Shown: positions 30,194 to 40,071, numbered from the stretch's first letter. The stretch: 64,000 nt of DNA from Candidatus Omnitrophota bacterium (GCA_042571705.1 JBHPFV010000005.1:4628-68627); one strand, 5' to 3'. The notes: generated from the letters alone by a model not told the origin. Made by a program: numbers and translations.

Positions 30194-30991
30194 ATGGCAG
30201 ATACATTTTATAAAAAATTAGGTATGCGGATTAAAGCCTTAAGAGAGCAAGCTGGATACTCACAGGAGAAATTAGCTGATTTGCTTAAAATAAGCAGGGT
30301 TTCTCTATCGCAGATTGAAACTGGAGATAGAAGGTTAAGCGCCGAGGAAGTAGCGGAGCTATCAAAAGTATTCAACGTTACTTCAGATATTTTACTCGAC
30401 TTAAAAAAGGATATAAAAGTGGTTTTAGAAAAAACAAAGAAACCTACAAAAGTAAGGCCAGAGGTTCGGATTAACGTGCCGCAAAAGAACTTAGATAAGT
30501 TTAAAGAAGTTTTACTCTATATTCTTAATCAAGTGGGCTCAAAGCCAAATATTGGTGAGTCTGTGCTATATAAGCTACTTTATTTTATCGATTTTAATTA
30601 TTACGAGAAATATGAAGAACAGCTTATCGGCGCCACCTACATAAAAAATAATTATGGCCCCACTCCTAAAGAATTTATAAAGATAATTGATGAAATGGAA
30701 GCCCAAAAGGAAATAATTAAAGTGGAGGATAAGTATTTTCAGTATCCCCAGCGAAAGTATCTTCCTTTAGAGACGCCTGATTTATCTAAATTGAAAGCTA
30801 GCGAATTAAAAATGATTGATGATGTATTGGAAAAGCTTTCTGATATGAATGCTGCGCGGATAAGTGAATACTCGCATAACGACGTTCCTTGGCTTACCAC
30901 AGAAGACGGTGAAATAATAGATTACGAATCTGTTTTTTACCGCACCCCGGAATACTCCTTGAGGTCTTACAGTGAAAAAGATATTCAATGA
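30194..30991 (+). CDS. XRE-HTH + DUF4065 (Panacea/SocA-like) antitoxin-type protein
   Basis: N-terminal HTH_XRE (IKALREQAGYSQEKLADLLKISRVSLSQIETG). The C-terminal part (VLYKLLYFIDFNYYEKYEEQLIGATYIKNNYGPTP) is typical of DUF4065. Confidence 0.75.
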   Translation: MADTFYKKLGMRIKALREQAGYSQEKLADLLKISRVSLSQIETGDRRLSAEEVAELSKVFNVTSDILLDLKKDIKVVLEKTKKPTKVRPEVRINVPQKNLDKFKEVLLYILNQVGSKPNIGESVLYKLLYFIDFNYYEKYEEQLIGATYIKNNYGPTPKEFIKIIDEMEAQKEIIKVEDKYFQYPQRKYLPLETPDLSKLKASELKMIDDVLEKLSDMNAARISEYSHNDVPWLTTEDGEIIDYESVFYRTPEYSLRSYSEKDIQ

Positions 30992-31346
30992 AATCAAGGC
31001 CCTCCCGGAATTCGACAAGGATTTAAAAAAACTTAAAAAGTTTAAAACGCTTAAAGAAGATTTAGATATATTTACCGAGAAACAACTTCAGCTTTTTCAT
31101 AAATTAGGCATAGATAATAAGGGAATAGTCCAAATATCAAATCTTGGTATTGAATGTCCAAATATTTATAAAGCAAGAAAGTTTGCTTGTAGATCTTTGA
31201 AAGGCAGAGGATCCGCAAGTGGCATTAGGGTAATTTACGCCTATTTTGAAGATAAAGATCGCGTAGAATTTATTGAGATATACTATAAAGGCGATAAGGA
31301 GAGCGAAGATAGAGGAAGAATTTTAAGGCATTACGGCAAAAAATAG
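30972..31346 (+). CDS. RelE/ParE-superfamily toxin-like protein
   Basis: 124 aa. The GTG start overlaps the upstream gene by 20 nt. GIRVIYAYFEDKDRVEFIEIYYKGDKE matches the conserved RelE/HigB-type beta-sheet core. Confidence 0.6.
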   Translation: MKKIFNEIKALPEFDKDLKKLKKFKTLKEDLDIFTEKQLQLFHKLGIDNKGIVQISNLGIECPNIYKARKFACRSLKGRGSASGIRVIYAYFEDKDRVEFIEIYYKGDKESEDRGRILRHYGKK

Positions 31347-31713: not shown

Positions 31714-32130
31714 ATGTCAGAGTTATTTAGATTTGGAATTTCATTAGAAAAAGAGCTACTAGAAAAATTTGATCATCTTATTAGAGAAGAGAATTATACT
31801 AACCGCTCTGAGGCTTTTCGAGATTTAATCCGTCAGGAGCTAGTAAAGAAGCAGTGGCAGGAAGGTAAAGAGATTGCCGGAGCCATTACTATTATTTACA
31901 ATCACCACAAAAGAGAACTTCTTAACAAAATTATTGATCTCCAACACGACTTTCAAAAAGCGATCATATCCACACAACATATCCATTTGGATCATAATAA
32001 TTGCTTGGAGATAATCGCGATCAAGGGTAACCCAAAAGAAACACAAAAGTTATTCAATACCTTAAAATCTATCAAAGGCATAAAACACGCTGCTCTATCT
32101 ATGACAACGACCGGCAGTAAAATACCTTAA
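31714..32130 (+). CDS. nikR: Nickel-responsive regulator NikR (ribbon-helix-helix + metal-binding ACT-like domain)
   Basis: RFGISLEKELLEKFD...NRSEAFRDLIR RHH domain. C-terminal IIYNHH...HIHLDHNNCLE His/Cys metal-site motifs. Confidence 0.85.
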   Translation: MSELFRFGISLEKELLEKFDHLIREENYTNRSEAFRDLIRQELVKKQWQEGKEIAGAITIIYNHHKRELLNKIIDLQHDFQKAIISTQHIHLDHNNCLEIIAIKGNPKETQKLFNTLKSIKGIKHAALSMTTTGSKIP

Positions 32131-32224: not shown

Positions 32225-32980
32225 GTGGGGAAAATTTTAAATTTAATCTTATTTTTGATAATTGCTTTTCCAATAATTGTACCTTCTATTGCCTATGCAG
32301 CAAGGCCTTTATCTACTGATGATGCAGGTACAGTAGAAGAAAGACACATTGAAATTGAAAGTGGCTTTGAATATGTTAATCAAACAGACGAAGAGAATAG
32401 TTTGAATTTAGTGTTAAAATACGGCATTATCAAAAATTTGGATTTGGGCACAGAGCTACCCTATAAATTTATCAATCTTAGTGGAAGCGCTGATGTTGAC
32501 GGCATAGGAGATATAAAAGTTACTACTAAATATCGTTTTTTAGAAGAGACAAAAAAAATTCCTGCTTTGGCTTTTAGTTTTAGCGTTAAAACCAAAACAG
32601 GCAGCGAAGCCAAGGGCATCGGTTCTGGGGAGGTGGATTATATTTTAAACGGGATAATTACTAAAACAATAGATAAGTTCATTAACCATTTAAATTTAGG
32701 TTATACGTTTGTCGGTGAACCTGAGGAGGGAAACCCTGACGATATTTTTTCTTATAGTTTAGCCTTAGAATATCCCATGTATGAGAGGTTAAGTATAGTA
32801 GGAGAGATTGCTGGTGAGACTACCTTTGAGGGAGATTTTGATGACAATCCCTGCAGTGGATTACTGGGGCTAAATTATGCCCTCAACGAAATGACTTCCT
32901 TCGATTTTGGAATGGGATTTAAGATATCAGACGCTAGCCCTGATTACAAAATTATTACAGGTTTGACATTTGGCTTTTAA
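32225..32980 (+). CDS. Outer-membrane beta-barrel transporter-like protein (MetA-pathway/'transporter' OMP family-like)
   Basis: Signal peptide (AYAARPLSTDDAGT..), alternating strands, and a terminal F. GTG start. The family is recalled from memory. Confidence 0.5.
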   Translation: MGKILNLILFLIIAFPIIVPSIAYAARPLSTDDAGTVEERHIEIESGFEYVNQTDEENSLNLVLKYGIIKNLDLGTELPYKFINLSGSADVDGIGDIKVTTKYRFLEETKKIPALAFSFSVKTKTGSEAKGIGSGEVDYILNGIITKTIDKFINHLNLGYTFVGEPEEGNPDDIFSYSLALEYPMYERLSIVGEIAGETTFEGDFDDNPCSGLLGLNYALNEMTSFDFGMGFKISDASPDYKIITGLTFGF

Positions 32981-33005: not shown

Positions 33006-33302
33006 ATGTGTTATACTGCACCATTAATAGGAGCTATAGTTACAACTGTGGCTTGGAAAAAGACAAAAGATGTAAAAGTCTGGTGGCTAAACTTAATGTT
33101 CTACGGAGGTGCATTATTTGGAGTAATAGACCATTTTTGGAATGGCGAGTTATTCCTTATTTCCGAAAACATAATTAGCGATTTGCTATTGGGTGTAACT
33201 ATTACAGCTATTATCCTCGTATCATGGGGAGCAGCAGTTATATGGAGCAAGGTAAACCCTACTTTAGCTAATTATGTGAACCTTAAGAGCCAATCCATCT
33301 AA
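33006..33302 (+). CDS. Small integral membrane protein, unknown function
   Basis: 98 aa with three hydrophobic segments. Preceded by GGAGAGGAGGGAAGG. Confidence 0.5.
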   Translation: MCYTAPLIGAIVTTVAWKKTKDVKVWWLNLMFYGGALFGVIDHFWNGELFLISENIISDLLLGVTITAIILVSWGAAVIWSKVNPTLANYVNLKSQSI

Positions 33303-33325: not shown

Positions 33326-33354
33326 TTGACAGGGGCTAAGCTATGGAGTATACT
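33326..33354 (+). promoter_or_regulatory. Sigma-70 promoter TTGACA-17-TATACT upstream of the Fur-family gene
   Basis: ttgaca at 33326-33331, tatact at 33349-33354. Preceded by an A-tract. Confidence 0.6.
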
Positions 33355-33389
33355 TGATAATGGAAACCAGTATCAATAGGAGATGAGTG

Positions 33390-33863
33390 ATGCCTCAACG
33401 AGATGGAACAGGACCACCTTGGTGGCACGGAAGGTTTAGGGGATGCGGCTATAGAATGACTGTGCCTAGGCAGGCCATATTAGATGTATTAAGCAAAACA
33501 TCTAAGCATCTGAGTGCTGAGGATGCATATATGGTTGTCCATAAGAACTATCCCAATGTAGGGCTTACGACCGTCTATCGTACTTTAGAATTATTAGTTC
33601 AGGTAGGCCTGGTTTTTAAGTTCGATTTCGGTGATGGGAGAGCACGATATGAGCTGTCAGAAGGGCCAAAAGGAGTTAGGCATCACCACCATTTAGTCTG
33701 TACAGATTGTGGCAGGGTTATTGATTATACAGATTTTATAGATGAAGAAGTAGAATTACTTAATCAAACGGAAAAAGGGCTTTCTAAAAAGTTTAATTTC
33801 AAAATCACTAATCATCTTATCCAATTTTATGGATTATGTGATAAATGCAAAAGTGAGAAATGA
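33390..33863 (+). CDS. fur: Fur-family metalloregulator with an N-terminal MPxxDGTGP (DUF5320-like) extension
   Basis: Winged-helix region (RQAILDVL...TVYRTLELL), HHHHLVCTDCG and CDKC Zn/metal sites. The N-terminus is MPQRDGTGPPWWHGRFRGCG. An AGGAGA RBS lies 8 nt before ATG 33390. Confidence 0.8.
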   Translation: MPQRDGTGPPWWHGRFRGCGYRMTVPRQAILDVLSKTSKHLSAEDAYMVVHKNYPNVGLTTVYRTLELLVQVGLVFKFDFGDGRARYELSEGPKGVRHHHHLVCTDCGRVIDYTDFIDEEVELLNQTEKGLSKKFNFKITNHLIQFYGLCDKCKSEK

Positions 33864-33889
33864 GATTTATATTTTTTTTCACTGTAAAT

Positions 33890-33908
33890 GAAAATGATTA
33901 TCATTAAC
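33890..33908. promoter_or_regulatory. Fur box upstream of the DUF5320 gene
   Basis: gaaaatgattatcattaac matches the classical GATAATGATAATCATTATC consensus at 16 of 19 positions. The core palindrome is aatgat-t-atcatt. Confidence 0.65.
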
Positions 33909-33930
33909 AAACAGGAAGGAGGTGTTTAAG

Positions 33931-34233
33931 ATGCCAGGTTTTGACGGAACCGGTCCCATGGGAATGGGTCCTATAACAGGCGGAGGAAGAGGTTTTTGTG
34001 CCGTGCCTATGAAAGATTGGCGGAGGCCCTTTGGTGGTAGATTCTTTGGTAGAGGCAGAGGCCGAGGCTGGAGACGTGGTTGGTTTGGTTATGGAAGCCC
34101 TAATGCTTCAGAGTTTACGCCGCAACAAGAAGCGGAGATGCTCAAAAAAGAAGCTAAGGCTATGCAGGATGAGATAAACTCCATACACATACGTATAAGT
34201 GAATTGGAATCCGCAGAGAAAAAGACTAAATAA
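33931..34233 (+). CDS. DUF5320-like protein (Gly-rich N-terminus, coiled-coil C-terminus)
   Basis: MPGFDGTGPMGMGPITGGGRGFC, RG-rich middle, C-terminal coiled coil (EAEMLKKEAKAMQDEINSIHIRISELE). A GGAGG RBS precedes ATG 33931. Confidence 0.7.
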   Translation: MPGFDGTGPMGMGPITGGGRGFCAVPMKDWRRPFGGRFFGRGRGRGWRRGWFGYGSPNASEFTPQQEAEMLKKEAKAMQDEINSIHIRISELESAEKKTK

Positions 34234-34262
34234 AAAGCACTTAATAACAAAGGAGTCTATTT

Positions 34263-34661
34263 ATGAGAGTGGCGATATCCACGGATGGGGATTTTGTATC
34301 TGCTCATTTTGGCAGATGTCCGTCATTTACTATTGTCGATATTGAGAATGATAAAGTTACGAAGAGAGAAGTCATAGACAATCCTGGGCATCAACCAGGA
34401 TTTATACCGCAATTCTTGCATGAAAGAGATGTCAATTGTATTGTTGCCGGTGGCATGGGAATGAGGGCAACAGGACTTTTCAACGAACTTAGGATTCAGG
34501 CAGTTGTAGGAGTAAGCGGAAATATTGATGAAGTAATAGAGAAACTTCAAAAAGGAACTTTAGAAGGTGGCGAGAGTCTATGTAAACCTGGTGCAGGAAA
34601 AGGATATGGTTTAGATAAGACTGAATGCGATCATCCTAAACAGGATAAATGTGATCATTGA
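34263..34661 (+). CDS. NifX/NifB-C-terminal-like (dinitrogenase FeMo-cofactor-binding fold) protein
   Basis: MRVAISTDG..VSAHFGRCPSFTIVDIE...VNCIVAGGMG is the typical motif series of this family. Confidence 0.8.
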   Translation: MRVAISTDGDFVSAHFGRCPSFTIVDIENDKVTKREVIDNPGHQPGFIPQFLHERDVNCIVAGGMGMRATGLFNELRIQAVVGVSGNIDEVIEKLQKGTLEGGESLCKPGAGKGYGLDKTECDHPKQDKCDH

Positions 34662-34679
34662 TTGAGAGGTGGTGAGAAC

Positions 34680-35054
34680 ATGAAGATTTGCATAACTTCA
34701 CAAGGAGACAATTTGGATTCACAGGTTGACCCACGCTTTGGAAGATGCCAGTATTTTATCATTACAGATACCCAGACTTCTGGATTAGAGGTAATTCAAA
34801 ATCCGAATATTGATTCCATGGGGGGCGCAGGTATTCAATCAGGGCAACTTGTGGCAACTAAAGGAGCCAAAGTAGTTTTAACTGGCAACGTAGGTCCAAA
34901 CGCCTTTCAGACTTTACAAGCAGCAGGGATCGATGTAATTACCGGAGTATCCGGTATCGTTAAAGATGTAACAAAGAAGTACAAAAAAGGCGAATTTAAG
35001 CCAACCCAAGGCCCAAGTGTCAATTCTAAATTTGGTATGCCAACGAAGAAATAG
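34680..35054 (+). CDS. NifX/NifB-C-terminal-like protein (second copy)
   Basis: MKICITSQGDNLDSQVDPRFGRCQYFIITD...VVLTGNVGPNAFQ. A GAGGTGGTGAG RBS precedes ATG 34680. Confidence 0.8.
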   Translation: MKICITSQGDNLDSQVDPRFGRCQYFIITDTQTSGLEVIQNPNIDSMGGAGIQSGQLVATKGAKVVLTGNVGPNAFQTLQAAGIDVITGVSGIVKDVTKKYKKGEFKPTQGPSVNSKFGMPTKK

Positions 35055-35066
35055 GGAGAACTTAAA

Positions 35067-35240
35067 ATGGCAGTTAGGGTGAATAAAATTAAATGCGATG
35101 GTTGTGGGGCATGCGCTGATGTTTGTCCTGCAAATGCTATTGAAATTAAACAAAGCAAGGTTGTTGTAAGTGATGAGTGCGTGGAATGTGGTGCATGTGT
35201 AGATGAATGTCCAAACGAAGCGATATCGCTTCCAAAATAG
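35067..35240 (+). CDS. 2x[4Fe-4S] ferredoxin (57 aa; absent from the supplied ORF track)
   Basis: It translates to MAVRVNKIKCDGCGACADVCPANAIEIKQSKVVVSDECVECGACVDECPNEAISLPK*, with two CxxCxxCxxxCP motifs. Preceded by a GGGAGAA RBS. Confidence 0.85.
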   Translation: MAVRVNKIKCDGCGACADVCPANAIEIKQSKVVVSDECVECGACVDECPNEAISLPK

Positions 35241-35252
35241 AAGGTGAGTGAA

Positions 35253-35468
35253 ATGCCGAGAGGAGATGGAACAGGACAAGGCCCGGGGACAGGTAAAGGT
35301 ATGGGAAGAGGTGGCGGTAGAGGCAGAATGGGTGGAAAGCGTCCAGGGTCAGGTCCTGGCGGAAGTTGCATCTGTCCAAGTTGTGGTTCGAAGATTCCTC
35401 ATCAGGCTGGGGCGCCGTGTGCTTCTTCAAGTTGCCCCAAATGCGGAAATCAGATGGTGCGGGAGTAA
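35253..35468 (+). CDS. DUF5320-like Gly/Arg-rich protein with C-terminal zinc ribbon
   Basis: MPRGDGTGQGPGTGKGMGRGGGRGR N-terminus. CICPSCG...CPKCG C-terminus. Confidence 0.65.
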   Translation: MPRGDGTGQGPGTGKGMGRGGGRGRMGGKRPGSGPGGSCICPSCGSKIPHQAGAPCASSSCPKCGNQMVRE

Positions 35469-35471
35469 TTA

Positions 35472-36083
35472 TTGAAAGAGAAACTATTAGAAAATCATAA
35501 AAGATATTTAGATAGAATAAATTTCTACAAGAAGTTTAGCTATGATGTTGAAGAAGAGAGAAAATTCATCTTAGAAAAGTCATACCCTCTCTATGGAGAC
35601 ATAGTAGAAGTAGGAACGGGCAAGGGGTATTTCACTGTTGAACTTGCTAAAGAAGGATATAACTTTACCAGTATAGACATTTCAGATGATGAACAGGAAT
35701 TCGCCAGATTTAATATAAAATATTTCGGCTTTGAAAAGCTTGTAGATTTTAGAATAGAGAACGCAGAGCACCTAAGTTTTGACAATTCCAGCTTCGATAT
35801 AATATTTTCTATCAACACAATTCACCATCTTACCAATCCGGTTAAAGTAATAGAGGAGCTGATAAGGATAGCTACCCTTGAAGGAAAGATAATTTTAAGT
35901 GATTTTACTGAAGACGGCTTAAAAATTATAGATAAAGTTCATGCAGCCGAAGGAAGAGTACACAAAGCGGGGCGGACAAACTTATCAGAGGTAGGTAATT
36001 ATTTAGAACGGAGAGGATTTAGTATCCAAAAGCACAAAAGCAGATTTCAAAAAATTCTTATCGCTTATCGCCAAATTATATAA
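35472..36083 (+). CDS. Class I SAM-dependent methyltransferase
   Basis: Motif I IVEVGTGKGYFTVELA, acidic loop SIDISD, and FDIIFSINTIHH. TTG start. Confidence 0.75.
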   Translation: MKEKLLENHKRYLDRINFYKKFSYDVEEERKFILEKSYPLYGDIVEVGTGKGYFTVELAKEGYNFTSIDISDDEQEFARFNIKYFGFEKLVDFRIENAEHLSFDNSSFDIIFSINTIHHLTNPVKVIEELIRIATLEGKIILSDFTEDGLKIIDKVHAAEGRVHKAGRTNLSEVGNYLERRGFSIQKHKSRFQKILIAYRQII

Positions 36084-36088
36084 TAGTT

Positions 36089-36934
36089 ATGATTATTTCA
36101 ATTGCCAGTGGAAAAGGTGGAACAGGAAAGACTACAATAGCCACCAGTCTTGCTCTCTCCATAAATAGTGGTGTTCAATTTTTAGACTGTGATGTTGAAG
36201 AACCCAACGCCCATATTTTCTTAAGACCAAAGATTCAGCAAAGTAAGGCGGTATCTGTTCCCGTACCTAAAATAGATGAATCTAAGTGCACTTTCTGCGG
36301 CAGGTGTGCGGAAGTTTGCGCCTATAATGCCCTTGCCGTGCTCAAGAATAAGGTGCTAACTTTTCCACATTTGTGCCACGGCTGTGGAGGTTGCAATCTT
36401 CTTTGTCCCCAAAAAGCAATCACGGAAGTTAATAAGGAAATAGGTGTTGTAGAAATTGGCAATTCAGCTAACTTGCAATTCATACATGGAAGATTAAATA
36501 TTGGCGAAGTAATGTCACCGCCTTTAATCAGAGCAGTTAAAGAGTACATTAATCCAACCCGGAGCGTAATTGTTGATGCTCCTCCGGGCACTTCTTGTCC
36601 TGTTATAGAGACAGTTAAAGGCAGTGATTTTTGTATGCTGGTTACCGAACCAACTCCTTTTGGTTTAAACGATTTGATATTAGCGGTTGAAGTTTTGAGA
36701 AAATTGAATATTTCCTTTGGAGTTATAGTAAATAGGTCTGGTATCGGAGACAATAGCCTGGGTCATTACTGCAAGAAAGAGAATATTCCTGTACTAATGC
36801 GGATCCCTTTTAGAAAAGAAATAGCTTTTGCCTATTCAAAAGGAATTCCTATTGTGAGTGAATTCCCAAAGTATAAGCAGGAATTTGTAAAGTTATATAA
36901 AGAAATCACGGAAAGAATAAGATGGAGCAAATAG
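36089..36934 (+). CDS. MinD/ParA-type P-loop ATPase with inserted 2x[4Fe-4S] ferredoxin domain
   Basis: Deviant Walker A SGKGGTGKTT. CTFCGRCAEVCAY and CHGCGGCNLLCP clusters. Confidence 0.85.
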   Translation: MIISIASGKGGTGKTTIATSLALSINSGVQFLDCDVEEPNAHIFLRPKIQQSKAVSVPVPKIDESKCTFCGRCAEVCAYNALAVLKNKVLTFPHLCHGCGGCNLLCPQKAITEVNKEIGVVEIGNSANLQFIHGRLNIGEVMSPPLIRAVKEYINPTRSVIVDAPPGTSCPVIETVKGSDFCMLVTEPTPFGLNDLILAVEVLRKLNISFGVIVNRSGIGDNSLGHYCKKENIPVLMRIPFRKEIAFAYSKGIPIVSEFPKYKQEFVKLYKEITERIRWSK

Positions 36935-37764
36935 TAGTAATCAGCGGAAAGGGTGGTACAGGTAAGACAGTGCTGACTGCATCATTTGCCGTCTTAGCGA
37001 AAAATGCAGTCTTTGCGGACTGTGACGTAGATGCAGCTGACCTGCACTTATTATTAAAGCCAGAAATAAAGGAAAAACATGAATTCAGGAGTGGGAGGAC
37101 TGCGAAGATTGATAAAAAGCTTTGCCAAGAATGCGGTAAATGCATAGCTGCCTGCCGTTTTGATGCGGTAAATAAAGATTTCACAGTAGATTCTATCTCC
37201 TGTGAAGGTTGTGGTGTCTGCAATCTTGTTTGTCCAGCGGAAGCTATCAGGATGGAAGAAAACTTATCCGGAGAGTGGTATATATCAGAAACAAAGTACG
37301 GCCCTATGGTACATGCAAAGCTCGGTATTGCCGAAGAAAATTCCGGCAAACTTGTAACGCTAGTACGACAAAATGCAAAGAAAATCGCAGAAAGAGGGAA
37401 TAAGGACTATGTTATTGTTGATGGGCCTCCCGGAATCGGCTGTCCAGTGATTGCTTCATTAGCAAATGTAGATTTAGCCTTGATAGTTACCGAACCCACG
37501 CTTTCCGGTATTCATGATATGAAAAGGGTTGCCGATGTTACTAAGCACTTTGGTGTTAATGCAAAGGTGGTCATAAATAAGTACGATATTAACTTGAAGA
37601 ACACACAGGATATTAGAAAAATTTGCCAGAATAGAAATGTAGAGATTTTGGCCGAACTACCTTTTTCAGAAGATGTTATCAAGTCGTTAGTAGACGAGGT
37701 TCCTGTTGTTACGTATAATAATGCAATAACCAATGAGATTATTGAGTTATGGCAGAAGATTTGA
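36922..37764 (+). CDS. MinD/ParA-type P-loop ATPase with inserted 2x[4Fe-4S] ferredoxin domain (paralogue)
   Basis: SGKGGTGKTV. CQECGKCIAACRF and CEGCGVCNLVCP. Overlaps the upstream gene by 13 nt. Confidence 0.85.
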   Translation: MEQIVVISGKGGTGKTVLTASFAVLAKNAVFADCDVDAADLHLLLKPEIKEKHEFRSGRTAKIDKKLCQECGKCIAACRFDAVNKDFTVDSISCEGCGVCNLVCPAEAIRMEENLSGEWYISETKYGPMVHAKLGIAEENSGKLVTLVRQNAKKIAERGNKDYVIVDGPPGIGCPVIASLANVDLALIVTEPTLSGIHDMKRVADVTKHFGVNAKVVINKYDINLKNTQDIRKICQNRNVEILAELPFSEDVIKSLVDEVPVVTYNNAITNEIIELWQKI

Positions 37765-38129
37765 CTTATTACCCAAAGCAAATCGTAACACTTGCTAAGA
37801 GCCCAAAACATTTTGGAAGAATGAACGACCCCACTAGTAGCGCATGTATTAAGGGTCCCTGTGGGGATGAAATGGAGTTTTATCTTACTATCAAGGACAA
37901 ATTCATCGAAGATGCAACATTCTACACTAAAGGTTGCATTGCAACAATAGTATGTGGTTCTATGACCGCACAGTTAGCAGCAGGAAAGTCTGTTAATCAG
38001 GCTCTAGGGCTTTCTCCAAGAAAGGTAATTGAAGCCTTGAATGGTTTGCCGGAAGATAATTGCCACTGTTCCATTTTAGCTGTCAGCGCTCTTTATAGAG
38101 CTATTGCAGACTATTTGCTTAAGAAATAA
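37749..38129 (+). CDS. IscU/NifU-N-terminal-like Fe-S cluster scaffold protein
   Basis: The three conserved Cys contexts are present: GPCGDEMEF, KGCIATIVCGS, NCHCSILAVSAL. Confidence 0.75.
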   Translation: MAEDLTYYPKQIVTLAKSPKHFGRMNDPTSSACIKGPCGDEMEFYLTIKDKFIEDATFYTKGCIATIVCGSMTAQLAAGKSVNQALGLSPRKVIEALNGLPEDNCHCSILAVSALYRAIADYLLKK

Positions 38130-38142
38130 AAGGTTATGAAGG

Positions 38143-38853
38143 ATGCAAATAAGAGTACTTTTTGATAGCGTTGCTATGGATAACAGGTTTTTAACGGGAT
38201 GGGGTGTTTCATATTTAATTGATGGAAAAGTTCTATTTGATACAGGTGAGAAATCAAGTTCATTGTTTAGGAATATGCAAACTATGGGCGTGAGGATTTC
38301 TGATATAAAAGTGGTTGTTATTTCTCATGACCATTGGGATCACAGAGGTGGTTTATGGGGGATTTTGAAAGAAAATCCCAAGCTAAAAGTTTGTGCTTGC
38401 CCTAATTTTAGCAGAAGATTTAAGAATAGGGTTAAATCTTCTGGTGGTCAACTAATCGAAGCCGATCAATTTACTCAAGTTTACAAAGATATTTATAGCA
38501 CTGGAGAGGTAGAAGGAAGATATGTCGGTAAATACATGCCAGAACAAGCCCTAGTTTTAAGAACAAAAAAAGGTATATCGGTCCTTACAGGTTGTGCTCA
38601 TCCCGGAATAATAAGGATTATTGAAAATGTAAAACGAAGTATATCTGGCAATATTTATCTTGTTATGGGCGGTTTTCATCTGATGGGTAAACATAAAAAG
38701 ACAATCACACCTATTGTGGATAAATTTCGGCAGTTGAAAATAAAGAAAGTTGCGCCCAGACATTGCACCGGCAAAAATGCTGCAGAGTTATTTAAAGAAA
38801 AATATGGTGGCGATTTTATTGAGGTAAAAGTCGGACAAACAATAGAAATATGA
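38143..38853 (+). CDS. Metallo-beta-lactamase-fold protein
   Basis: ISHDHWDHRGG (HxHxDH), a later GCAHPG, and a final HCTG. Confidence 0.75.
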   Translation: MQIRVLFDSVAMDNRFLTGWGVSYLIDGKVLFDTGEKSSSLFRNMQTMGVRISDIKVVVISHDHWDHRGGLWGILKENPKLKVCACPNFSRRFKNRVKSSGGQLIEADQFTQVYKDIYSTGEVEGRYVGKYMPEQALVLRTKKGISVLTGCAHPGIIRIIENVKRSISGNIYLVMGGFHLMGKHKKTITPIVDKFRQLKIKKVAPRHCTGKNAAELFKEKYGGDFIEVKVGQTIEI

Positions 38854-38913: not shown

Positions 38914-40071
38914 ATGGATAACAGGTCTTGGTTCTCGCAAATCGCTTTTAAACAACGGATTTGGCTGTTTTCAACCTTAGCAGGAATGCTTGCGATTATA
39001 GCTTTTGGGATTTTGTTAAGCCCACCGAGCAAGTCAAAGGAATCAATCGATTTCAACATTAATATGTCTATTCAGGATATTGCTCCCAAACTTGGAGTTA
39101 CAGGTAAAGGCCTTGCCAGGGAACTTGAACTGCCACTCGACGCTTCTAAGAAAAAACCAGTCCGGACGTTAGGTGTGACATACGAAGAACTTGATCATGC
39201 CATTGAACACATTCTATCCCATCATGATTCTGTGCTTAAATATTATGTTTATGCAGCACTGGTTCTCTTGGGACTTGTATTTCTTGTGAGACTAGGGCGT
39301 CCAGATAATTCTGATAGTAAGAACCGCCGTGTCTGGTACCCAAAAACCCCATATATTGTTGCTCTCTTGTTTTCTGTAATAGTAGCTGGATTCATTCTTG
39401 GCAAGTCACCTAATCCCATGGAAGGGACGGTCAAAATATTTAAATCCATGGTGGGGCTTTATCCTGATCCAATGGTCAAAGTAATCGCCTTTGTCTTCTT
39501 CATTATATTGGCCATTGTTGGAAATAAAATTATTTGTGGCTGGGCGTGTCCTTTTGGTGCTTTGCAGGAACTTATCTACAGCATACCAATTTTACGAAAA
39601 ATCAAAAAAATGAAACTCCCATTTGTATTCACAAACGCAATCCGCGCATGTCTTTTTTTTGCCATGCTTCTTTTTCTGTTTGGAATCATTGGAGGGCGCA
39701 AGGGATTTGTGATTTATCACTACGTTAACCCTTTTAACCTATTTAATCTTGATTTCGAGACATTCAGTATTCTGCTGACAGTAACCGTTGCCTTGTTGAT
39801 ATCATTTATTATCTACCGTCCATTTTGTCAATTTATTTGCCCTTTTGGCCTTGTTTCTTGGATAACTGAGCGATTCAGCATTTTTCGTATTCGAATTAAC
39901 AAGGAGAAGTGCACCCAATGCGGTGCCTGTATGAAGGCATGTCCCCTAGAAGCTGCAAAAGGCCGGGTTAACAGAAAAAGATTACCAGCAGATTGTTTTA
40001 GCTGTGCGCGTTGTTTGAATGTTTGTCCAGTTGATGCCATTCAATATGCACCTTCCTTAAAAAAGGCATAA
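38914..40071 (+). CDS. Integral-membrane polyferredoxin (NapH/MauN/NosR-like 4Fe-4S binding protein)
   Basis: Multiple TM segments with the membrane Cys motifs CGWACPFGALQE and CQFICPFG. C-terminal CTQCGACMKACP and CFSCARCLNVCP. Confidence 0.8.
   Translation: MDNRSWFSQIAFKQRIWLFSTLAGMLAIIAFGILLSPPSKSKESIDFNINMSIQDIAPKLGVTGKGLARELELPLDASKKKPVRTLGVTYEELDHAIEHILSHHDSVLKYYVYAALVLLGLVFLVRLGRPDNSDSKNRRVWYPKTPYIVALLFSVIVAGFILGKSPNPMEGTVKIFKSMVGLYPDPMVKVIAFVFFIILAIVGNKIICGWACPFGALQELIYSIPILRKIKKMKLPFVFTNAIRACLFFAMLLFLFGIIGGRKGFVIYHYVNPFNLFNLDFETFSILLTVTVALLISFIIYRPFCQFICPFGLVSWITERFSIFRIRINKEKCTQCGACMKACPLEAAKGRVNRKRLPADCFSCARCLNVCPVDAIQYAPSLKKA

Follow-up and report, generated by a model that had tools for sequence, protein, structure and literature searches.

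Introduction

The closest described counterpart of the locus analysed here is the orange-protein (ORP) complex of Desulfovibrio vulgaris, in which Orp3 and Orp4 are MinD proteins with two [4Fe-4S] motifs, Orp5 and Orp8 are NifX-like, and the proteins bind Fe-S or Mo-Cu-S clusters (PMC6345978). The present locus lies in a 64,000-nucleotide stretch of DNA from a Candidatus Omnitrophota bacterium (GCA_042571705.1 JBHPFV010000005.1:4628-68627), called the window below and numbered from its first letter. It is a gene cluster that resembles the ORP complex and is headed by a dedicated Fur-family regulator; the regulator, a DUF5320 protein and a 71-amino-acid zinc-ribbon protein all begin with the same short motif, MP-x-x-DGTG. 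Both systems come from anaerobes and both encode two MinD-like ATPases with two [4Fe-4S] motifs together with Nitro_FeMo-Co proteins. The D. vulgaris genes are, however, under sigma-54 with OrpR, whereas the window cluster has a Fur-family repressor and a sigma-70-type promoter, and it adds to the ORP core the DUF5320 protein, the tagged zinc-ribbon protein, a methyltransferase, an IscU-like protein and a protein of the metallo-beta-lactamase (MBL) fold. No equivalog of MrpORP (Orp9) was found in the window; model NF041136 reached 94 bits against a cutoff of 450, via a NifX-like domain only.

Members of the Fur family combine a winged-helix DNA-binding domain with a dimerization domain, an HHHH metal site and two CxxC pairs, and act at AT-rich palindromic Fur boxes over promoters; the window regulator shares these features, including one box of the classical 7-1-7 form. 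The partner proteins of ParA/MinD ATPases (ParB, ParG, MinE, PomX and McdB) classically control them through flexible N-terminal peptides; among these partners, ParG is a transcriptional repressor with a flexible N-terminal tail and McdB is a disordered protein with a coiled coil. The shared motif of the window cluster may be likened to these: it is a short, flexible, extreme N-terminal peptide, found on small proteins encoded beside deviant-Walker-A ATPases. What is new is the link: an uncharacterized peptide family joins two constituents each of a known kind, namely a Fur-family repressor and an ORP-like cluster. In the literature we found neither the tag nor this Fur subfamily described, nor any account of ORP-like clusters controlled by Fur, and nothing relevant on DUF5320 or DGTGP in a Fur or metallocluster context; the ORP literature, from which the original ORP cluster paper was absent, gave no description of DVU2107 or of any tag.

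Results

Three proteins of one cluster begin with the same motif

The tagged proteins and their N-terminal segments are as follows.

33390-33863, plus strand: Fur-family repressor, 157 amino acids, with an HHHH metal-site motif and two CxxC pairs; begins MPQRDGTGPPWWHGRFRGCG
33390-33416, plus strand: Fur tail MPQRDGTGP, a DUF5320-like 9-mer; residues 1-8 disordered in the AlphaFold2 model (predicted local distance difference test, pLDDT, below 50)
33417-33455, plus strand: PWWHGRFRGCGYR, a subfamily-specific counterpart of Fur helix α1 (conservation, AlphaFold2)
33931-34233, plus strand: DUF5320 protein (Pfam), 100 amino acids, made up of tag, disordered linker rich in Arg, Gly and aromatic residues, and C-terminal helix; begins MPGFDGTGPMGMGPITGGGRGFC
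33931-34002, plus strand: full tag of the DUF5320 protein, residues 1-24, MPGFDGTGPMGMGPITGGGRGFCA (homologue consensus)
35253-35468, plus strand: 71-amino-acid protein, made up of tag, Gly/Arg-rich linker and C-terminal Cys-rich zinc ribbon (CxCPxCG...H...PC...CPxCG); begins MPRGDGTGQGPGTGKGMGRGGG

An earlier sequence-only reading of the window had pointed to a common motif at the start of these three proteins, and all three N-termini stand in the sequence exactly as it quoted them. The pattern MP..DG[TS]G matched the six-frame translation of the window three times, in each case at the start of an open reading frame (ORF) on the plus strand and all within 1.9 kb; the analytic chance expectation is 0.001, and 300 shuffles of the sequence gave 0 matches. 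MP-x-x-DGTG is the first part of a segment of about 24 residues, MPG[FG]DGTGPxGxGPMTGRGxG[FY]C, which is located at the extreme N-terminus and predicted to be disordered. The DUF5320 protein and the 71-amino-acid protein carry the full segment, and Fur carries its first nine residues only.

The N-terminus of Fur is correctly assigned

Recognition of the motif on Fur depends on the start codon. AGGAG at 33378-33382 forms a ribosome-binding site (RBS) 7 nucleotides from the ATG at 33390; because of an in-frame TGA at 33384, the fur ORF can start no earlier, except at the adjacent GTG. Upstream of the DUF5320 gene the RBS reads AAGGAGGTG (33916-33924), with 8 nucleotides between its GGAGG core and the ATG at 33931. 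A homologue search with Fur returned 2,961 sequences; the 120 listed are 78-91% identical to it, and 109 of them have exactly 24 residues up to a conserved anchor Thr. These 109 are the close homologues to which the counts below refer; counts for the wider subfamily refer to 78 species representatives (GTDB), and codons and positions were compared in 39 species-level genes.

The sequence-only reading had named homologues starting at the internal Met, with no conservation of the upstream codons, as the observation that would make the resemblance coincidental. We found the reverse: the residues upstream of Met23 are conserved, and 66 of the 109 close homologues have Leu, Ile, Phe or Val in place of this Met. 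Fur therefore does exist in its long form, and together with the RBS these data confirm its start codon. An MP start is present in 93 of the 109 close Fur homologues, in 117 of 120 homologues of the DUF5320 protein and in 119 of 120 homologues of the 71-amino-acid protein. Synonymous codons vary at conserved Fur residues (four codons at G20, four at R22 and three at T24), which indicates selection on the peptide rather than on an element in the RNA or DNA; a conserved nucleotide-level element behind the motif was ruled out on this ground.

The tag is the hallmark of DUF5320 and recurs on the zinc-ribbon protein

The proposal that the motif is the hallmark of DUF5320 proteins was borne out. The second protein is a full member of the Pfam family (PF17253, 80.8 bits against a gathering cutoff of 27, model positions 1-99), the tag corresponding to model positions 1 to about 24, and an NCBI protein 100% identical to it is also from Candidatus Omnitrophota. 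Among its homologues, 118 of 120 begin MPG[FG]DGTGPxGxGPMTG[GR][GA][RA]G[FY]C, with G8, P9, G13, G17 and G21 invariant and C23 present in 117 of the 118. AlphaFold2, run with 69 homologues, left residues 1-60 unstructured (pLDDT about 50) and predicted a helix at 64-99; no relatives of this protein were found among solved structures.

A tag profile comprising 30 columns of the DUF5320 N-terminus was searched against 1.84 billion representative proteins and matched 7,494 of them at E<=1e-3. The 149 best matches scanned are all small (42-288 amino acids), with DUF5320 as their sole Pfam match, so that among these roughly 150 proteins the tag was not seen outside DUF5320-type proteins; 9-mers of the Fur type score too low to appear in such a search. 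The best-match proteins contain 190 tag cores, of which 133 are at residue 1, while 45 of the 57 internal cores begin with Met-Pro (178 of 190 overall) and 35 of the 57 follow a Shine-Dalgarno-like tripeptide such as 'KEV', which is AAGGAGGTG translated in frame. The internal cores thus look like tandem cistrons read as one ORF, and the Met-Pro starts and Shine-Dalgarno-like sequences tie the tag to translation starts. Database proteins with two tags (P0361-P0407, e.g. P0363, P0384 and P0397) consist of a unit of about 45-80 amino acids, comprising a tag plus 'C.L...GFAG..G.PV', which runs in frame into a second Met-Pro tag, the two being separated by 'KEV..', a Shine-Dalgarno sequence in translation. 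Tagged cistrons in tandem, without a stop between them, would look like this, and the first unit is a fourth kind of tagged unit.

The 71-amino-acid protein has at least 1,468 homologues, typically of 74 amino acids, whose consensus is MPRGDGTGPxGQGPGTGRGxGRGGGRGRMGGNRPGAGPxGxCxCPxCGxxxPHQxGxPCxxxxCPKCGxxMxRE. MP..DGTGP is present in 106 of the 120 listed homologues; the 'GTGQ' that the sequence-only reading quoted for the window copy arises because this copy is without three residues (PxG) after DGTG. About one-third of the listed homologues have a precomputed PF17253 match and some are named DUF5320 by NCBI. The window protein had no Pfam match at E<=0.01, and a hidden Markov model (HMM) of the DUF5320 N-terminus matched its family with E-values of 3e-8 to 1e-2 (8,010 ORFs). 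Tag and linker are held in common with the DUF5320 protein and the C-terminal helix is not, a zinc ribbon standing in its place; the two proteins share one design, consisting of a tag, an Arg/Gly-rich linker and a C-terminal module. No solved-structure relatives of the 71-amino-acid protein were found.

Fur carries the first nine residues of the tag in place of half a helix

The nearest known proteins are Fur-family metalloregulators such as the Bacillus-type Fur 9ire and the N-terminally extended Campylobacter Fur (PDB 6d57/4ets). The window protein matches Pfam FUR (PF01475) over residues 20-147 with 110.9 bits against a gathering cutoff of 23.1, and its closest solved relative is the Bacillus-type Fur (PDB 9ire, E 4.5e-31). 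No NCBIfam equivalog subtype (Fur, Zur, PerR, Irr etc.) scored above its cutoff, the best being Bacillus Fur with 132 against 220 bits. An AlphaFold2 model built with 96 homologues shows the canonical Fur fold (mean pLDDT 77), and in the homologue alignments C104, C107 and C150 of the structural zinc site and H98-H101 of the His-rich regulatory site are invariant, C153 of the zinc site being at least 90% conserved.

The tail consensus in the 109 close homologues is MP[RG][GR][DN]G[TM]GPP, with frequencies of 85% for P2, 40% for D5, 39% for N5, 72% for G6, 54% for T7, 28% for M7, 95% for G8 and 88% for P9. The exact form MP..DGTGP occurs in 32 of the 109 and the relaxed form MP..[DN]G[TMSCA]GP in 54. 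Position 5 is Asp in 44 and Asn in 43 of these sequences and is usually followed by Gly. Within flexible peptides, no sequences deamidate or form isoaspartate more readily than Asn-Gly and Asp-Gly.

Following the tail, WWHGRFRGCGYR is nearly invariant within the Fur subfamily; DGTGP is the consensus only in the closest clade. The homologue alignments show W11, G18, G20 and R22 without variation and W12, G14, F16 and Y21 with at least 90% conservation; among the species representatives, too, W11, W12, G14, F16, G18, G20, Y21, R22 and T24 are near-invariant. Residues 10-17 (PWWHGRFR) form a helix in the AlphaFold2 model. Since R17 aligns with residue 13 of 9ire, the N-terminus is only about 4 residues longer than that of Bacillus-type Fur; the 8-9 disordered residues of the tail therefore replace the first half of helix α1 and are not added onto Fur. 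This arrangement of a disordered MPxxDGTGP tail followed by the invariant WWHGRFRGCGYR sets the window protein apart from the Fur family at large, as do its place as dedicated neighbour of an ORP-like cluster and its 78-91% identity across several phyla. Fur keeps this identity across Omnitrophota, Nitrospirota and WOR-3, whereas the adjacent DUF5320 protein falls to 40-60% in a comparable set of top database matches; the gap suggests that the regulator is unusually strongly constrained or has recently spread horizontally.

The sequence-only reading had spoken of a fusion of DUF5320 to a Fur-type regulator that it had not seen described. We found no description of one in the literature either, but Fur has no DUF5320 domain, and the match is confined to its first 9 residues. 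Pfam DUF5320 matched neither the window Fur nor any of its 120 listed homologues. A longer homology between the two N-termini (GR..G.C.GY) was considered and ruled out, because the 9-mer alone explains the HMM score of Fur and because RFRGCGYRMT aligns with the ordinary end of Fur helix α1 in 9ire.

Predicted Fur boxes precede both fur and the DUF5320 gene

The control sites are as follows.

33326-33354, plus strand: sigma-70-type fur promoter, TTGACA at 33326, a 17-nucleotide spacer and TATACT ending at 33354 (11 of 12 consensus positions)
33355-33375, plus strand: Fur-box-like inverted repeat TGATAATGGAAACCAGTATCA between the -10 hexamer and the fur RBS (pattern match)
33883-33909, plus strand: Fur box or boxes upstream of the DUF5320 gene, overlapping a weak promoter-like site (pattern match)

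Only these two Fur-box sites were found in the window, against 0.13 expected by chance. At the DUF5320 gene the matched site AATGAAAATGATTATCATT (33887-33905) contains the classical 7-1-7 palindrome TGAAAATGATTATCA (33889-33903), and the promoter-like site that it overlaps consists of TTTTCA at 33876, a 17-nucleotide spacer and TATCAT ending at 33904. The two operators differ in geometry, that of fur being of the type TGATAAT-N7-ATTTTCA and that of the DUF5320 gene TGAAAAT-G-ATTATCA; compared with the family's classical box, the fur operator has its half-sites 6 bp further apart. Both geometries are conserved across phyla. The operator consensus TGATAATGGAAACCATTTTCA is found at the same position upstream of fur in other phyla, promoter, operator and RBS are arranged in this way upstream of fur in most of the 39 loci from many phyla, and many related loci have the same Fur box upstream of their DUF5320 genes. 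The position of an operator over the fur promoter and RBS region suggests autoregulation, and these sites point to a Fur that would repress both its own gene and the ORP-like operon.

The cluster is conserved in more than 12 phyla

The remaining genes of the cluster are as follows.

34263-34661, plus strand: NifX-like protein 1, Nitro_FeMo-Co domain, like Orp5/Orp8 (Pfam, 79.1 bits)
34680-35054, plus strand: NifX-like protein 2, Nitro_FeMo-Co domain (Pfam, 86.7 bits; position conserved in related loci)
35067-35240, plus strand: 2x[4Fe-4S] ferredoxin, 57 amino acids (Pfam Fer4, E 1.9e-16; in a subset of related loci)
35472-36083, plus strand: class I S-adenosylmethionine (SAM)-dependent methyltransferase, 203 amino acids (Pfam Methyltransf_31/_11/_25)
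36089-36934, plus strand: MinD/ParA-type ATPase with inserted 2x[4Fe-4S] motifs, Orp3/Orp4-like, copy 1 (Pfam CbiA, ParA, Fer4)
36922-37764, plus strand: MinD/ParA-type ATPase with ferredoxin motifs, copy 2, overlapping the copy 1 gene (Pfam, synteny)
37749-38129, plus strand: IscU/NifU_N-like scaffold protein (Pfam NifU_N, 88.4 bits)
38143-38853, plus strand: MBL-fold protein, the usual last cluster gene (Pfam Lactamase_B, E 1.2e-8; conserved position)

Both MinD/ParA-type ATPases have the deviant Walker A motif GKGGTGKT. Scanning one genome per species with the Fur alignment yielded 80 loci (individual related loci are numbered with the prefix L) from more than 12 phyla, including Omnitrophota, Thermodesulfovibrionales, Planctomycetota, Spirochaetota, Atribacterota, WOR-3, Calditrichota, Lentisphaerota, Elusimicrobiota, Clostridia, Syntrophales, Aminicenantes and others. 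Most of the 80 keep the order Fur, DUF5320, NifX, NifX, (ferredoxin), zinc ribbon, (methyltransferase), MinD, MinD, (NifU), MBL-fold protein, and in most related loci the gene for NifX-like protein 1 follows the DUF5320 gene. The state of the Fur tail showed no apparent correlation, among the related loci, with presence of the zinc-ribbon protein or the methyltransferase. The methyltransferase is found in about 40% of related loci, mostly in Omnitrophota, and has generic matches only among solved structures. A small class I SAM methyltransferase lies inside the clusters at L001:12362-12952, L004:11472-12110 and L087:7559-8170 also, and the embedded enzyme adjoins proteins that have RG-rich linkers and an N-terminal Pro.

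Directly upstream of fur lie the genes for the nickel regulator NikR (31714-32130), a Phenol_MetA_deg-type beta-barrel protein of the outer membrane (32225-32980) and a 98-amino-acid membrane protein (33006-33302); NikR or the small membrane protein precedes Fur in L016, L024 and L048 as well. A Cys-rich CGGC-domain protein is encoded just upstream of fur in a WOR-3 and a Nitrospirota locus (L001:6320-6763 and L003:7612-7980), and L003 has a fully tagged Fur without an ORP-like cluster alongside. Further upstream in the window, a gene with a helix-turn-helix and a SocA/Panacea domain, antitoxin-like (30194-30991), overlaps an ORF of 124 amino acids without a Pfam match (30972-31346); the two are probably a toxin-antitoxin pair unrelated to the present finding. 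After the MBL-fold gene, 38914-40071 encodes a 385-amino-acid membrane polyferredoxin (Fer4_5 plus Fer4 motifs) that may be part of the cluster unit.

Related clusters hint at the partners of the tagged proteins

In two Chloroflexi-type loci, L085 and L086, a DUF134 regulator heads the cluster instead of Fur. Both encode a NifX-like domain fused to the DUF5320 linker and C-terminal helix (L085:5161-5742, 52.6 bits, model positions 25-99; L086:5142-5735, 43.1 bits, model positions 14-99); the tag is absent from these fusions and NifX stands where it would sit. Such Rosetta-stone evidence ties DUF5320 physically to NifX-like carriers. The zinc-ribbon gene abuts or overlaps the first MinD ATPase gene in L085 and L086, which links its product to the ATPases, and directly precedes that gene in many Fur-headed loci. 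The DUF134 regulators themselves (L085:3944-4417 and L086:3255-3728) have tails rich in Arg, Gly and aromatic residues (ending in GRGCGRRFRGGRRW and GWGRGRGRGFRRGRWR, respectively) that are reminiscent of WWHGRFRGCGYR of Fur and of DUF5320 linkers, so that two unrelated regulator families have RG/aromatic tails.

Discussion

The sequence-only reading took a common N-terminal tag on a regulator and two small proteins to suggest recognition by a common partner or ligand, and such a partner or ligand for the three proteins is plausible, gene fusions and gene order lending the idea indirect support. Because the tag is disordered, fixed at the N-terminus and found on different C-terminal modules within one conserved cluster, it reads as a short linear docking motif, for which the partner could be a NifX-like carrier or the MinD/ParA-type Fe-S ATPases. 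On this view the tail of Fur would be a pared-down tag, reduced to the first unit MPxx-DGTGP, that allows the repressor to touch the same partner, and the state of the assembly machinery could feed back on transcription besides the sensing of metal at the HHHH and Cys sites of Fur. If real, a docking function on Fur would be confined to the closest clade. That the tail has a functional docking role toward a shared partner is our tentative proposal, which we rate as possible and somewhat short of probable. A more specific version makes the tag a novel type of peptide that docks onto or activates Orp3/4-type Fe-S MinD ATPases or NifX-like carriers, and through which Fur would be directly controlled by the machinery it represses; this version appears unlikely.

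Several observations weigh against a docking function. The HMM of the DUF5320 N-terminus gives Fur proteins only 10-14 bits (E 0.018-0.4 over the same 8,010 ORFs) and the likeness ends after residue 9, although Fur proteins are the best matches outside the family among ORFs of any size; unrelated ORFs have E-values of at least 1.8, and one tagged ORF of 48 amino acids scores higher (E 2e-3). The relaxed motif is present in only 6 of the 78 species representatives, and clearly many members of the subfamily work without it. Elsewhere the protein is 80-90% conserved, but nowhere does it vary more than at positions 3-7. The peptide is thus real for the lineage of the window Fur but no feature that defines the subfamily. 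Some loci pair Fur with DUF5320 and have no NifX or MinD gene nearby. The loci with the NifX fusion still encode separate tagged proteins, and hence the fusion gives no reason to pick out the tag as the part that binds NifX. The comparison with ParA/MinD partners is limited likewise: there is no sequence similarity, and the first nine residues of the tag are Gly/Pro-rich, the DUF5320 tag usually being without a basic residue in positions 1-9, unlike classical ParA-activating peptides.

These features of Fur are what would be expected if its tail were an evolutionary leftover or a weakly constrained look-alike, derived for example from an old duplication or recombination at the 5' end and without tag function. 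The functional feature of the Fur N-terminus may in that case be the invariant WWHGRFRGCGYR, strengthening DNA binding or dimer geometry. Besides the rarity of the relaxed motif and the weak HMM match, a leftover would account for the spread of residues in the 39 species-level genes (D 7, R 6, H 4 and F 4 at position 5; T 7, R 7 and M 5 at position 7), for the near-invariance of W11 to T24 amid free synonymous variation, and for the same operator type and RBS context at fur and the DUF5320 gene. However, in the close clade the most frequent state of the tail is the DUF5320 state at every position (D/N 79%, G 72%, T/M 82%, G 95%, P 88%) even as synonymous sites vary; tail length is fixed in 109 of 120 close homologues; and the DGTGP state occurs in Fur members from both Omnitrophota and Nitrospirota. 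On balance we think a leftover somewhat unlikely.

It is also conceivable, though distinctly unlikely, that the tag is a ligand loop in which the N-terminal Pro (after Met removal), Asp5, Thr7 and a conserved Cys bind a metal or metal-sulfur cluster, the three proteins sensing or carrying the same species. Candidate ligands exist in each protein, namely C23 of the DUF5320 tag with its near-complete conservation, C19 and H13 of Fur (93 and 89 of the 109 close homologues, respectively) and the Cys-rich ribbon of the 71-amino-acid protein. All other proteins of the cluster are metal or cluster proteins, and the D. vulgaris ORP homologues bind clusters (PMC6345978). Yet the part common to all three, MPxxDGTGP, is without Cys or His, about 40 residues without Cys follow the tag in the 71-amino-acid protein, C19 of Fur is Y, R, A, G or H in many homologues, and the AlphaFold2 models of Fur and the DUF5320 protein contain no folded site. 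We regard as very unlikely that the tag is instead a processing, modification or turnover signal co-regulating the abundance of the three proteins, whether an N-terminal degron, a substrate of the SAM methyltransferase (at the N-terminal Pro or linker Arg) or an Asn/Asp-Gly deamidation timer. Its obligatory N-terminal position and Met-Pro start, the alternation of D and N before Gly at Fur position 5, the RG-rich linkers and the class I methyltransferase inside the cluster in many loci would suit a signal, but many loci keep all tagged proteins without the methyltransferase, that enzyme resembles generic small-molecule methyltransferases only, and the cluster has no conserved gene for a protease or adaptor. 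An artefact, be it a wrong fur start, a chance low-complexity match or a nucleotide element, is scarcely credible: the motif is short and Fur has an internal Met at residue 23, but the three matches far exceed the chance expectation, a strong RBS and an in-frame stop lie just upstream of a conserved N-terminus in which Met23 is mostly replaced, and synonymous codons vary at the conserved residues.

Should the tail prove neutral on Fur, the finding shrinks to an annotation curiosity. What defines DUF5320, a family of about 7,500 clusters at 50% identity, is a disordered peptide that must stand at the N-terminus. This tag is found again on small proteins of different build and, shortened, on the Fur of the cluster, and a NifX domain can replace it in natural fusions. 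The Fur proteins with the signature WWHGRFRGCGYR form a subfamily of their own, very highly conserved and devoted to a metallocluster operon, which bears on iron and Fe-S homeostasis in Omnitrophota, Nitrospirota, WOR-3, Atribacterota and other phyla. If the docking or activation reading is true, it would mean that a Fur-family regulator is subject to protein-protein feedback beyond metal sensing in more than 12 mostly uncultured anaerobic phyla.

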